Positions 44,235 to 63,877 of a stretch of DNA of 64,000 nucleotides are shown one piece after another (within the stretch, counting starts at the first letter, position 1; every line of letters starts with the position of its first letter). The notes under the pieces were generated by a model, which was not told the DNA's origin, made no database searches, and worked only from the letters and a program-made list of their open reading frames with translations. Source of the stretch: Escherichia coli (lineage in GTDB: Bacteria; Pseudomonadota; Gammaproteobacteria; Enterobacterales; Enterobacteriaceae); NCBI RefSeq assembly GCF_044324875.1, contig NZ_CP172185.1; one strand, written 5' to 3'. Made by a program: the position numbers and the translations under genes.

Positions 44235-44310
44235 TGGCTCCTCTGACTGGACTCGAACCAGTGACATACGGATTAACAGTCCGCCGTTCTACCGACTGAA
44301 CTACAGAGGA
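44235..44310 (-). tRNA. asnV: tRNA-Asn (GUU)
   Basis: 76-nt reverse complement of tcctctgtagttcagtcggtagaacggcggactGTTaatccgtatgtcactggttcgagtccagtcagaggagcca. Confidence 0.95.
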
Positions 44311-46642: not shown

Positions 46643-46718
46643 TGGCTCCTCTGACTGGACTCGAACCAGTGACATACGGATTAACAGTCCGCCGTTCTAC
46701 CGACTGAACTACAGAGGA
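46643..46718 (-). tRNA. asnU: tRNA-Asn (GUU)
   Basis: Identical 76-nt tRNA-Asn sequence, reverse strand. Confidence 0.95.
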
Positions 46719-46878
46719 ATCGCTGTTGAGGCACATCTTAACGGCGAAAAATCTTTTGTCAAACCCGATTTTTAAATTTCCCAACTGTTTGCCGTTTCTA
46801 TCAACAGTTTGTTGCATTTGCAGACAATTTGTTGGCGAAAATCTTTGCAGCTTTGCTGATTCTCCCTCATTATTTGAA

Positions 46879-48366
46879 ATGTGGTTTCACTTTCTGCAAT
46901 TAAGGTCGGCTTTGAATATCTCCTCTGCTTTACGCCAGGTTGTTCACGGCACTCGCTGGCACGCCAAACGCAAGAGTTACAAAGTGTTGTTCTGGCGCGA
47001 GATAACCCCGCTTGCTGTTCCTATCTTCATGGAGAACGCCTGTGTCCTGTTGATGGGTGTCCTGAGCACTTTTCTGGTCAGCTGGCTGGGAAAAGATGCG
47101 ATGGCCGGCGTGGGATTGGCGGACAGCTTCAATATGGTCATTATGGCATTTTTTGCGGCTATCGATCTTGGTACCACTGTCGTTGTGGCATTTAGTCTCG
47201 GTAAGCGGGATCGACGACGAGCGAGGGTGGCGACGCGGCAGTCATTGGTGATCATGACGTTGTTTGCCGTGCTGTTGGCAACGCTTATTCATCATTTTGG
47301 CGAACAAATTATTGATTTCGTTGCGGGTGATGCCACGACAGAAGTTAAAGCACTGGCGTTGACTTATCTGGAGCTGACGGTACTCAGTTATCCAGCAGCT
47401 GCCATCACTTTGATTGGTAGTGGTGCACTTCGTGGTGCAGGGAATACGAAAATACCGCTACTGATTAACGGTAGCCTGAATATTCTTAATATTATTATTA
47501 GCGGCATATTGATTTACGGCCTTTTCTCCTGGCCGGGACTGGGATTTGTCGGGGCTGGGTTGGGTTTAACCATTTCTCGTTATATTGGCGCAGTGGCAAT
47601 TTTGTGGGTGCTGGCGATTGGTTTTAATCCTGCGCTAAGGATTTCGTTAAAGAGCTATTTTAAACCGCTGAATTTTAGCATTATCTGGGAAGTCATGGGG
47701 ATTGGTATTCCAGCAAGTGTCGAATCAGTATTATTTACCAGTGGTCGGTTATTAACCCAAATGTTCGTTGCCGGGATGGGGACCAGTGTTATTGCCGGAA
47801 ATTTTATCGCGTTTTCAATTGCGGCTCTTATCAACTTACCCGGAAGTGCGCTCGGCTCTGCTTCTACGATCATTACAGGCCGAAGGTTGGGAGTAGGGCA
47901 GATAGCGCAAGCAGAGATTCAGTTGCGGCATGTGTTCTGGCTGTCCACTCTTGGATTAACGGCCATCGCCTGGCTAACGGCTCCCTTTGCCGGGGTTATG
48001 GCATCGTTTTACACCCAGGATCCACAGGTTAAACATGTCGTTGTGATTCTGATTTGGCTAAATGCTTTATTTATGCCTATTTGGTCTGCCTCATGGGTGC
48101 TACCCGCTGGATTTAAGGGTGCTCGCGATGCACGTTACGCCATGTGGGTTTCTATGTTGAGCATGTGGGGTTGCCGGGTTGTAGTCGGTTATGTGCTGGG
48201 AATCATGCTTGGCTGGGGTGTGGTTGGTGTCTGGATGGGAATGTTTGCCGACTGGGCTGTGCGGGCCGTGCTGTTTTACTGGCGAATGGTTACTGGACGT
48301 TGGCTGTGGAAATATCCTCGACCTGAGCCGCAAAAGTGTGAAAAAAAGCCAGTTGTGTCGGAATAA
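46879..48366 (+). CDS. yeeO: MATE-family efflux transporter
   Basis: ORF from 46726; start placed at MWFHFLQLRSALNISS...; 12 predicted transmembrane segments. Confidence 0.85.
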   Translation: MWFHFLQLRSALNISSALRQVVHGTRWHAKRKSYKVLFWREITPLAVPIFMENACVLLMGVLSTFLVSWLGKDAMAGVGLADSFNMVIMAFFAAIDLGTTVVVAFSLGKRDRRRARVATRQSLVIMTLFAVLLATLIHHFGEQIIDFVAGDATTEVKALALTYLELTVLSYPAAAITLIGSGALRGAGNTKIPLLINGSLNILNIIISGILIYGLFSWPGLGFVGAGLGLTISRYIGAVAILWVLAIGFNPALRISLKSYFKPLNFSIIWEVMGIGIPASVESVLFTSGRLLTQMFVAGMGTSVIAGNFIAFSIAALINLPGSALGSASTIITGRRLGVGQIAQAEIQLRHVFWLSTLGLTAIAWLTAPFAGVMASFYTQDPQVKHVVVILIWLNALFMPIWSASWVLPAGFKGARDARYAMWVSMLSMWGCRVVVGYVLGIMLGWGVVGVWMGMFADWAVRAVLFYWRMVTGRWLWKYPRPEPQKCEKKPVVSE

Positions 48367-48466
48367 ACGACAAAGTGCAGATTATTTCAGCAAACGATTT
48401 CAAATTTAAAAAACAGGCTTTGACATTGTGGATGAGCGTCGCTAATATTCGCCTCGTTCTCACGAT

Positions 48467-48542
48467 TCCTCTGTAGTTCAGTCGGTAGAACGGCGGACTG
48501 TTAATCCGTATGTCACTGGTTCGAGTCCAGTCAGAGGAGCCA
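48467..48542 (+). tRNA. asnW: tRNA-Asn (GUU)
   Basis: tcctctgtagttcagtcggtagaacggcggactgttaatccgtatgtcactggttcgagtccagtcagaggagcca on the plus strand. Confidence 0.95.
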
Positions 48543-48996
48543 AATTTTAGTTTTGAGACATCTCTATGAGTCTCAAGACAGTTAAAAAATAAAAATTATT
48601 TTTACCCGGTTACCTTGTAAAAAGTGACCGGGTTTTTTGATTTCTGTGTTTCGTGCGCTTAATCGAGTCTCACGCTTCAGTGAGCAAATTGCCCCTCCCC
48701 AACAGACATCACGATTCGCAAGGTCAAAAACTCTGTTCCATGAAGTACCGTACAAAGACAAAGAGAAAAATGCCTTATGCGGGATGTCGCTATCGCGTCT
48801 TTATCGGGAAACTATGCGTAATTGCCACTTTGCCTTCTGTAATCAGAAAAAGAAGAACTGGAATTTTAATAAATATTATTTCTCTGGGAATGGGGGGTTT
48901 TTATAAGCAATATGACGAGTTGAATATTATATTTTTTATAAGGATTATATGAGATTAAAGAAATCTGCCATAAAGACAGATTTCTTTAAAATATAA

Positions 48997-49713
48997 TTAG
49001 AGATTTGCGACGTTATGATAAACTTTTTGAACATCGTCGTCATCTTCAAGGGCATCAACAAGCCCTTCAAAGATTTCTAAATCTTCTGGGGAAAGCTCAA
49101 CTTCAGATTGAGCAATCATTTCTAATTCTGTTGTTGAGAACTCAGTGATTCCAGCTGCTTTTAGAGCCGCGATTCCTTTATGAAGGTCAGTAGGTTCAGT
49201 ATAAATAACAATATTACCTTCTTCTTCAGTTACATCACGAACATCAACTTCAGCTTCAAGTAAAATTTCAAAAATATGGTCAGGGTCTGTTCCTTTAAAT
49301 ACAATCACACCCGTATTGTCAAACATATAGCTGACAGAGCCTGCCGCTCCGATATTGCCGCCTTTTTTATTGAAAATTGTGCGAACGTTAGCAATCGTAC
49401 GGTTAACATTTGAAGTCAATGTCTCAGCGATAATCATTGAGCCATTAGGACCAAAGCCTTCATAACGGCCCTGCACGAACGTTTCATCTCCGCCGCCTTT
49501 GGCTTTATCAATTGCTTTATCAATAACGTGCTTTGGAACTTGTGCCTGCTTTGCTCGTTCAATAACGAATTTTAAAGATGTGTTTAATTCTGGATCGGGT
49601 TCACCTTGTTTGGCAGCGGCATAGATTTCTACACCGAATTTTGCATAAATTTTAGACGTCGCACCGTCTTTAGCCGTTTTTTTAGCAACAATATTGGCCC
49701 ATTTACGTCCCAC
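48997..49713 (-). CDS. yeeN: YebC/PmpR-family transcriptional regulator
   Basis: 238-aa [47 protein letters not shown]... Confidence 0.9.
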
Positions 49714-50054
49714 TGGAATGATCTCCTCGAAAATTTATTTACATTACTGGTAAATCGTTAACATGTGTTAATTCGGCATATTATATCATAACAGGAAAAA
49801 TCTCGTCTATTAGAAATAAAAATATTCTAAAGCCATAATATTATATTTAATCTCATAAAAACTAATGTTGTTGGCGGGATTTTTTATAATTGTGTTTTGA
49901 AAGCATACTTGCTTATAATATGTGGAAATCATTAAGGCTATAATAAAACTCGTATCCGCCCCAGGAAGCAAACAGCCTGCTTTATTGCAGGCTATTTGCT
50001 GGATGACTTACTAAATCCTTCACATCTATTCCTGATAAAAAGGAACAGAACTTA

Positions 50055-63801: not shown

Positions 63802-63877
63802 TGGCTCCTCTGACTGGACTCGAACCAGTGACATACGGATTAACAGTCCGCCGTTCTACCGACTGAACTACAGAGGA
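63802..63877 (-). tRNA. asnT: tRNA-Asn (GUU)
   Basis: Identical 76-nt tRNA-Asn sequence, reverse strand, upstream of yeeJ. Confidence 0.95.

Follow-up and report, generated by a model that had tools for sequence, protein, structure and literature searches.

The spacer between the tRNA gene asnW and the gene yeeN of Escherichia coli is most probably non-coding junction DNA made up of three pieces of different origin, with no protein and no small RNA (sRNA) produced from its 300-bp core. It was analysed within a window of 64,000 nucleotides from contig NZ_CP172185.1, where it occupies positions 48543-48996 (454 bp). The first piece (48543-48640) would be the tail of the asnW transcript, the second (48641-48816) filler, and the third (48817-48996) the eroded end of an insert derived from Lactococcus. 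All of its elements appear to be of known kinds (intrinsic terminators, a backstop by the termination factor Rho, a pseudogene stub and possibly a tRNA 3' external transcribed spacer, 3'ETS), and what appears to be new is their assignment to this locus. The present analysis itself yielded the parts of the spacer, their homologies, the neutral rate of divergence and the disrupted reading frames; the data on Rho-dependent termination (PMC7815308) and on the Hfq association of an RNA from the spacer (PMC8175672) are published.

The limits of the spacer follow from the tRNA call on one side and from the yeeN open reading frame (ORF) on the other, and this pair of genes is itself flanked by yeeO and amn.

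48467-48542, + strand: asnW, tRNA-Asn(GUU), called by ARAGORN and matched by the Rfam tRNA model at 72.6 bits; left border of the spacer
48997-49713, - strand: yeeN ORF; right border of the spacer

A first-pass annotation, made from the sequence letters, had recorded an unassigned gap of about 450 bp at this place. The gap is real and carries no annotation in K-12 or in the genomes listed: no annotated feature lies between yeeN (b1983) and asnW (b1984) in K-12 MG1655, and none is annotated beneath the spacer core among the E. coli genomes listed. The region 48400-49100 is 99.9% identical to that of E. coli strain CFSAN061770 and, with at least 80% of its length in one place, is found in at least 5395 of 5426 complete E. 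coli genomes. The core (48641-48960) is present in 5413 of the 5426, at only 90-95% identity in more than half of these. In CFSAN061770 the locus tags run from RS10380 to RS10395 with two tags skipped across the spacer, which suggests that gene calls were once made there and later withdrawn by the annotation pipeline. On asnW together with yeeN, the literature searched yielded only a peak inside yeeN from systematic evolution of ligands by exponential enrichment (SELEX) and papers on genomic islands.

The right-hand 180 bp of the spacer belong to a block of DNA that extends through yeeN and its promoter.

48817-49822 (L097 3888-4757; L007 3698-4933), - strand: Lactococcus-derived block that comprises a promoter, the yeeN gene, its terminator and the GyrI-like stub, and whose last part makes up the right-hand 180 bp of the spacer
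48955-48989, - strand: yeeN intrinsic terminator, a perfect 13-bp inverted repeat with a stem of 13-15 bp, imported with the gene
48928-48954, - strand: relic of the donor's yeeN/GyrI intergenic region with a -10-like TATAAT, recognized by alignment with the L. lactis and enterobacterial copies
48817-48927, - strand: 5' remnant, now dead, of the GyrI-like gene that in Lactococcus comes next after yeeN

Between 48956 and 49822 the window shares 85.4% DNA identity over 871 nt with the chromosome of L. lactis. By segment, identity to the L. lactis DNA is 88% in the yeeN coding sequence, 74% in the 109 bp upstream of it (promoter and Shine-Dalgarno sequence), 76% in the terminator and 59.5% in the GyrI-like stub. 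The YeeN protein is 94% identical to that of L. lactis and falls in the same 90% cluster. After the enterobacterial proteins, its nearest relatives among the matches listed are from L. taiwanensis (93%), followed by those from L. formosensis, L. petauri and L. ileimucosae (84-85%) and from Streptococcus (77-79%). At 36.4%, the GC content of the block is close to the 36.8% of the L. lactis locus, whereas the window as a whole has 49.5%.

In both L. lactis and L. taiwanensis the gene order is rsfS, a methyltransferase gene, PF05636 (HIGH_NTase1), a 141-aa ORF, yeeN, the GyrI-like gene and ung. Because yeeN sits in this conserved housekeeping synteny in Lactococcus, the transfer probably ran from Lactococcus to the enterobacteria, and it may have had a single origin; for both the direction and the number of transfers, the basis here is synteny and composition and not phylogeny. 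On this reading, about 1 kb of L. lactis-like chromosome would have carried yeeN, which encodes a YebC_II translation factor, into the Enterobacteriaceae. The end of this insert would hold the original terminator of yeeN, what remains of the promoter of the gene that follows in the donor, and some 41 initial codons of that gene, the GyrI-like one, now dead. Current work assigns to yeeN the role of YebC_II translation factor in E. coli, with relief of polyproline stalling as its activity (PMC12234827, PMC12856214). No paper on a Lactococcus origin of enterobacterial yeeN and its flanks was found within the literature searched.

The identity of the stub was examined at the protein and DNA levels. 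In a tblastn comparison, residues 17-41 of the L. lactis protein (LPKEISLIELPVLNYLMIDGKGAPT) align with 48891-48817 (IPREIIFIKIPVLLFLITEGKVAIT) at 48% identity (E = 9.7e-6 in a small search); the GyrI-like protein of L. taiwanensis gave nothing significant against the whole spacer (48543-49000). At the DNA level the stub is colinear with the copy in Citrobacter R56 (z = 8.4 against shuffles). Its start codon is now ATA (48927-48925), a 1-nt insertion has shifted the frame and created a TAA, and about 41 of some 173-231 codons are retained. The product of the neighbouring gene in L. taiwanensis matches PF06445 (GyrI-like, 2.6e-11), and the E. coli and Citrobacter stubs by themselves are too short for a Pfam match. 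Judging from these alignments, the stub can be regarded as homologous to the PF06445 family but as a relic, with neither an intact gene nor a complete domain. The longest piece found is that of Citrobacter sp. R56, where 1272 nt reach about 57 codons into the GyrI-like gene and the motif NYLMIDGKGAP can still be read. Homology to the spacer ends at 48932 in Salmonella and at or before 48828 in Citrobacter, Kluyvera and others. Conservation across the Enterobacteriaceae, which had been proposed as a check on the region, is seen for the yeeN-side end including the terminator, and the rest of the spacer is not conserved outside Escherichia.

As in other gene relics at the edges of transferred DNA, GC content steps down (here to 36%), the donor order of yeeN followed by the GyrI-like gene is kept, and the stub has lost its start and frame and evolves neutrally. 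The present case differs in that the donor is a Gram-positive Lactococcus, the insert is short (about 1.0-1.3 kb), the yeeN block gave no sign of mobile-element genes, repeats or att sites, and yeeN has kept its native promoter and terminator. The edges of the block show no target-site duplication or shared sequence. A 15-nt inverted repeat (48945-48959 and 49846-49860, 93% complementary) brackets yeeN, with one arm outside the transferred block; by a rough estimate it is near what chance would yield in AT-rich DNA.

The yeeN block, about 1.0-1.3 kb long, also occurs in Citrobacter, Superficieibacter, Kluyvera, Shimwellia, a Raoultella metagenome-assembled genome and Salmonella (L003-L017, L092-L096), and its flanks differ between most of the genera compared. 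They differ even among Citrobacter species, no tRNA gene is nearby, and the block contains no mobility genes. Downstream of yeeN, the Salmonella-type contigs (L093-L096) carry defence systems that differ by strain, among them BREX (BrxA/B/C with a methylase), McrBC, a type I HsdR, a nuclease of the HNH/ScoMcrA kind and DndB, which suggests a hotspot for defence islands adjoining yeeN. One contig labelled E. coli SCPM-O-B-8794 (L003, NZ_JAATUR010000009.1) has a yeeN block only 88% identical to that of the window, with an EAL-type signalling protein encoded downstream and neither amn nor asnW. The label may name the wrong organism; otherwise this would be another copy that was placed independently.

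A promoter scan places the yeeN promoter at 49809 to 49780 on the - strand (TAGACG-18-TATAAT with an upstream TG). At the other end of the gene, the segment after the yeeN stop codon folds with -20.2 kcal/mol (z = -7.2; none of 200 shuffles equals it). Across 23 sequences ranging from E. coli to Lactococcus, 87.9% of the alignment cells in the stem are paired and six pairs have changed on both sides; the resulting covariation score was reached by none of 500 shuffles, and no slid register came near it. The U-tract behind the stem is interrupted in E. coli (UUUCUUUAAU) and consists of U6-U7 in L. lactis and most enterobacteria. A hairpin at about 48957-48987 had earlier been taken to look like the yeeN terminator, and the preservation of its structure by compensatory changes from Lactococcus to E. 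coli bears this out. Transcription of yeeN would thus start at an imported promoter and stop at an imported terminator that is probably still functional and under constraint.

Between the imported remnant and the asnW transcript tail lies the second piece of the spacer.

48641-48816, no strand assigned: filler of about 176 bp, 46% GC, evolving neutrally; not a gene

Divergence of this piece and of the remnant was gauged against L100 (GCA_015332265.1), a divergent contig with the same yeeN-spacer-asnW layout, the one contig on which conservation at the genus level rests. The filler is 83.0% identical to L100, with five additional gap columns, and the Lactococcus remnant 85.4%. In the same comparison yeeN shows 99.6% identity at codon positions 1 and 2 and 87.4% at position 3, and the yeeN terminator 97.6%; asnW is 100% identical, as it is in every strain compared. 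Nucleotide diversity (pi) among ten diverse E. coli strains is 0.045 in the filler and 0.072 in the Lactococcus remnant, values that are inflated by the choice of strains according to spacer identity, a bias from which the L100 comparison is free. The same ten strains give 0.037 for yeeN third positions, 0.061 for amn third positions and 0.013 for yeeN as a whole. For the filler, the rate of divergence matches or slightly exceeds that of yeeN third positions, and the piece drifts neutrally. Several strains that look unrelated (H26, H27, H88, H89; L091 2675-3500) carry an IS1A element at about 48814, a few bases away from where the Lactococcus-derived remnant has its edge. Between the two terminators, the DNA would have no job that is visible to selection.

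Several sources of the filler were considered. That it is DNA from downstream of yeeN in the donor was rejected, since no z above 2.1 resulted when the filler was leniently aligned to the downstream regions of L. lactis, L. taiwanensis, Citrobacter R56 and L003, and a plasmid origin was rejected because the matches in the plasmid collection are E. coli chromosomal sequence filed as plasmids. The filler has no similarity elsewhere within the window and no match in the phage collection. When a six-frame concatenate of 48630-48836 was searched by phmmer against 1.84 billion representative proteins, 13 short proteins were returned, which fit several of the six frames at 60-92% identity. Since several frames match, these 13 proteins are spurious ORF calls on the same DNA. 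One protein record, P0135 (91 aa), has an N-terminus unrelated to the locus (MKTAGVDIGSITAKAAIVEG...) fused in frame to the + strand frame of the spacer; the contig behind it is probably chimeric, or else some strain has an insertion beside the asnW terminator.

Two overlapping frames in the spacer, which the first-pass annotation had described as low-complexity, are present as reported.

48637-48906, + strand: frame of 89 aa with a TTG start; chance ORF
48653-48952, + strand: frame of 99 aa with a GTG start; chance ORF

They are what a stop-poor stretch of 300 bp yields and are not beyond chance expectation. Either of them, the internal ATG of the second at 48770, or a 14-codon ORF at 48777-48821 might in principle encode a small protein, since such ORFs exist and the 14-codon one, alone among them, is intact in 10 of 10 strains. 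In the 14-codon ORF, however, about six differences change the amino acid and two are silent, and a good ribosome-binding site is lacking. The 89-aa and 99-aa frames are each intact in only four of the ten diverse strains and broken in the other six, and a 59-aa frame on the - strand is broken in nine of the ten and intact in one; in the ten-strain alignment the breaks are indels of 4, 2 and 1 bp. Diversity in the spacer is neutral, equal to or above that of synonymous sites, and IS1 interrupts it in several strains as described above. The 1.84 billion proteins contain no homologs from outside this same locus, Pfam gave nothing above the cut-off for the three longest spacer ORFs, and the table of small ORFs from ribosome profiling by Stringer et al. 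2021 has no entry for yeeN, for asnW or for coordinates 20575xx-20578xx. A small protein in the spacer is therefore very unlikely, and the earlier suggestion that one might be present is not supported. The accompanying suggestion that the region may be non-coding is upheld for the 300-bp core, with frames broken in most strains, neutral divergence and no homologs beyond the ORF calls on the DNA itself.

The core might instead encode an independent, lineage-specific sRNA or antisense RNA, whose transcription could, for example, start on the - strand at the promoter left over from Lactococcus (-10 at 48949-48944) and head for the rear side of the asnW terminator. A promoter-like site with 10 of 12 matches does run from 48971 to 48944 on that strand, within the relic intergenic or promoter region of the donor, and the asnW terminator hairpin also forms a hairpin on the - strand. 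Yet promoter-like matches are only about twice as frequent in this AT-rich DNA as in shuffles, and on neither strand is the core more structured than shuffles (z = +0.85 and +0.78). It has no Rfam match, diverges neutrally with many indels, tolerates IS1 and is not conserved outside Escherichia; nor does either strand carry a curated 3' end between K-12 positions 2053655 and 2058025 in the two Term-seq lists covered. An sRNA from the core, as had also been entertained at first, is accordingly given little credence, and we return to the interpretation of the core as neutral filler and relic.

The first piece of the spacer is of a different character.

48543-48640, + strand: asnW 3' trailer, with hairpin 1, A/U-rich linker, terminator and U6; candidate Hfq-bound 3'ETS
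48550-48579, + strand: trailer hairpin 1, a 12-pair stem with no U-tract behind it
48580-48603, + strand: linker CAGTTAAAAAATAAAAATTATTTTT, A/U-rich, single-stranded and invariant in 10 strains
48604-48639, + strand: intrinsic terminator of asnW (inverted repeat I20), with its stem-loop at 48604-48633 and T6 directly behind it at 48634-48639

The segment 48543-48650 folds with -34.7 kcal/mol (z = -5.8), a value equalled by none of 200 shuffles. The terminator stem at 48604-48633 has 10 pairs, 5 of them G-C. Over the whole trailer, 99.1% of the stem cells are paired in the ten strains and all eight variable pairs are wobble-compatible: hairpin 1 is paired in 99.2% of cells, with four pairs that vary only by pair-preserving wobble changes, and the terminator in 99%, with stem variants that are U-A/U-G or U-G/C-G switches. 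The linker varies in 0 of 24 columns, compared with 66 of 316 in the core (Fisher p = 0.0066), and the T-run with the 11 bases after it in 0 of 17. Against L100 the linker has one change, and the trailer is 90.8% identical, compared with 83-85% for the core. From these patterns, the trailer and both terminators are constrained, whereas the 300-bp core is not. The hairpins after asnW had been called terminator-like; the region does contain an intrinsic terminator with its T6, and it holds hairpin 1 as well.

A long trailer is peculiar to asnW, since the other three tRNA-Asn genes of the window, identical in tRNA sequence, have short trailers with a terminator almost at once. A paralogous relationship was rejected, as the asnW trailer has no similarity to any of the three. 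Apart from the tRNA, nothing in the spacer region reaches an Rfam gathering score, even at permissive E-values. Matches below threshold to manA-II (48509-48638, spanning the 3' half of the tRNA and the trailer; 31.9 bits where the gathering score is 100, and E = 0.0025 in a small search) and to STnc370 (27.5 bits against 54) were rejected as identifications, both being on generic hairpin-plus-terminator shapes; what manA-II and the trailer have in common is probably just a hairpin plus a terminator. A promoter scan identified TTGACA-17-TAATAT at 48420-48448 upstream of asnW. The gene would be transcribed from this promoter of its own, with most transcripts ending at the intrinsic terminator at 48639; maturation of the tRNA would then cut off the 98-nt trailer, part of which may be caught by Hfq.

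Transcripts that escape this terminator seem to be dealt with by Rho.

48640-48757, + strand: C-rich, G-poor stretch, by its composition a candidate rut (Rho utilization) zone for asnW read-through transcripts

These 118 nt after the asnW terminator contain about 30% C and 17% G, with a C/G ratio of 1.6-1.85 in 78-nt windows. C-rich, G-poor RNA is the composition that Rho prefers, and the stretch may well be a loading site for Rho. Adams et al. 2021 (PMC7815308) reported a Rho termination region at K-12 position 2057519 on the - strand, which they classed as antisense to yeeN. The - strand of K-12 corresponds to the + strand of the window, and this position maps to about 49050. Without bicyclomycin (BCM), 1121 reads lay upstream and 26 downstream; in its presence the counts were 843 upstream and 182 downstream (score 9.3, p = 3.7e-37; PMC7815308), the score being taken over 800-nt windows that include the tRNA. 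With a BCM-sensitive Rho region at about 49050, some transcription on the asnW strand must cross the whole spacer and be stopped by Rho just inside yeeN. The C-rich, G-poor left half of the filler probably lets Rho load on untranslated RNA that has escaped the asnW terminator. The BCM-sensitive stop some 300-400 nt further on, antisense to the 3' end of yeeN, would keep tRNA read-through from crossing yeeN in the antisense direction. The arrangement resembles published cases of Rho-terminated antisense read-through (PMC7815308) in its BCM-sensitive stop on the asnW strand antisense to yeeN and in the C-rich, G-poor untranslated stretch upstream of that stop. It differs from them in that the rut site after asnW is proposed from composition, with the tRNA inside the 800-nt scoring window, and in that the candidate rut stretch evolves neutrally.

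A role for the trailer as a regulatory RNA has also to be weighed. The model is 3'ETS-leuZ, a tRNA trailer of about 53 nt, compared with some 98 nt for that of asnW. In E. coli, 3'ETS-leuZ acts as a sponge of the sRNAs RyhB and RybB (Lalaouna et al. 2015, cited in PMC8175672 and PMC5145812). By analogy, the asnW trailer (48543-48640), once released from the tRNA precursor, might be an Hfq-dependent RNA that pairs with or sponges one or a few RNAs. Data from RIL-seq, in which interacting RNAs are ligated and then sequenced, on Hfq point in this direction (Bar et al. 2021, PMC8175672). The node asnW.yeeN.IGR appears in exponential phase with 48 chimeric fragments in 1 interaction, always as the second RNA in the chimera (SIC 0 with k = 1) and with a U-tract of 6. 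Its sRNA score of 0.094 is slightly below the authors' cut-off of 0.1, compared with 0.103 for DicF, 0.083 for RybB and 0.17 for 3'ETS-leuZ. In the other condition it has 92 fragments in 2 interactions (PMC8175672), with a very low score of 0.0146.

The layout of the trailer, with a stem-loop, an A/U-rich single strand and a terminator with U6, is like that of an Hfq-binding module, and the conservation described above (invariant linker and U-run, pair-preserving stems, higher identity to L100 than the core) fits such a role, in comparisons made within Escherichia. This conservation could, however, be explained by terminator function alone. The RIL-seq table is without coordinates, so that the RNA could be read-through from elsewhere in the spacer, and its strand follows only from the order of the gene names; the interactions are few, and no pairing partner is known for the asnW trailer RNA. 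In the two Term-seq lists covered, no 3' end lies at the terminator, only that of the mature tRNA, and for a discrete, stable trailer RNA no Northern blot data were found. The simplest reading of the Hfq-bound RNA is that it is the asnW trailer, because the name order parallels that of leuZ.yecA.IGR and the U6 fits the asnW terminator; its position within the spacer is deduced in this way.

Like 3'ETS-leuZ, the asnW trailer is the 3' trailer of a tRNA gene that ends in an intrinsic terminator, is an 'X.Y.IGR' node in Hfq RIL-seq found mostly second in chimeras, and has a stem-loop, an A/U-rich linker and a U-tail. Unlike it, the asnW trailer has no known partner, discrete RNA species or phenotype, shows 1-2 interactions where the same table has 5 for leuZ, and scores under the authors' cut-off. 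Its membership in the class of 3'ETS sponges is not established. We regard a regulatory trailer as possible but unlikely, and as a complement to the explanation of the spacer as junction DNA, not as a replacement for it. More doubtful still is the fuller proposal that this is a second E. coli tRNA 3'ETS with a regulatory role of its own, freed when RNase processes a highly expressed tRNA-Asn precursor, bound to Hfq via linker and U6, and acting as sponge or sRNA on one or two partners. Such a function would belong to the asnW copy alone, because it is the only one of the four tRNA-Asn genes with a long structured trailer. No paper discussing an asnW 3'ETS was found. Of the original suggestion that the spacer might hold a small protein or an sRNA, what survives is that an RNA from the spacer is seen on Hfq, with the trailer as its likeliest place.

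Besides the selection of the ten strains mentioned above, several points weigh against the interpretation of the spacer as junction DNA between two terminators. Neither terminator was flagged by the consensus terminator scan, that of asnW because its loop exceeds the limit of the scan. In the two curated Term-seq lists covered there is no 3' end at the asnW terminator (about K-12 2057930), and its efficiency is undocumented. The sole curated 3' end nearby is that of the mature tRNA at K-12 2058025, - strand (Adams et al. 2021, PMC7815308); the two lists have no other on either strand from 2053655 to 2058025, and its neighbours are kilobases off. The Rho data do not separate asnW read-through from transcription that starts inside the spacer. 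The filler is without detectable ancestry, which leaves the origin of 48641-48816 unexplained. Finally, with an RNA from the spacer on Hfq, it is not established that the trailer is without any RNA function.

A further explanation starts from the use of asnW by mobile DNA.

48527-48542, + strand: last 16 nt of the tRNA, CCAGTCAGAGGAGCCA, the direct repeat where genomic islands join, with the spacer just outside

Integration of the pks island and of others at this gene is documented (PMC7232551), and in strain ETEC4077 (L090) an RHS/TPR island abuts the spacer. The spacer might thus be the scar of an excised tRNA-linked island or prophage, i.e. an att remnant or integrase fragment. In ETEC4077, however, homology to the window begins exactly at the last 16 nt of the tRNA. 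As the island joins at these 16 nt and the spacer is unchanged after them, the spacer is the chromosomal flank of the attachment site and not island DNA. It contains no second copy of the tRNA 3' end or of the 16-nt core, has no similarity to phages, to any integrase or to other proteins, and is found in the same 5413 of 5426 genomes irrespective of islands. A scar of this kind is thus extremely improbable, and junction DNA outside the attachment site remains the preferred description.

The four identical tRNA-Asn genes of the window lie at 44235-44310, 46643-46718, 48467-48542 and 63802-63877, and strains differ by rearrangements between such copies (L083, L086). For example, nac and cbl precede the tRNA gene abutting the spacer in EcN, and in AHB21 yeeO is inverted between two tRNA-Asn copies, with IS100 nearby. 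In PNUSAE147324 and WCHEC005237 the annotation treats the MATE exporter gene yeeO, with an internal stop, as a pseudogene (L085 739-2226; L091 739-2226). In the window its ORF (46726-48366, 546 aa from a TTG) is longer than the annotated product of 495 aa and is said to overlap the tRNA-Asn gene at 46643-46718 on the other strand.

For annotation, the spacer could be labelled as tRNA trailer and terminator, neutral filler and horizontal-transfer relic, with no new gene call. The origin of yeeN and the asnW trailer matter more than the spacer itself. With the trailer there is a concrete candidate, open to testing, for a second tRNA 3'ETS that is bound by Hfq. If the transfer is read correctly, yeeN would be a clean, datable case of inter-phylum transfer, from Gram-positive bacteria into the core genome of enterobacteria, and it bears on current work on the translation factors YebC and YeeN: an origin in Lactococcus would explain why the activity of YeeN differs from that of the native YebC and why the two are not redundant.

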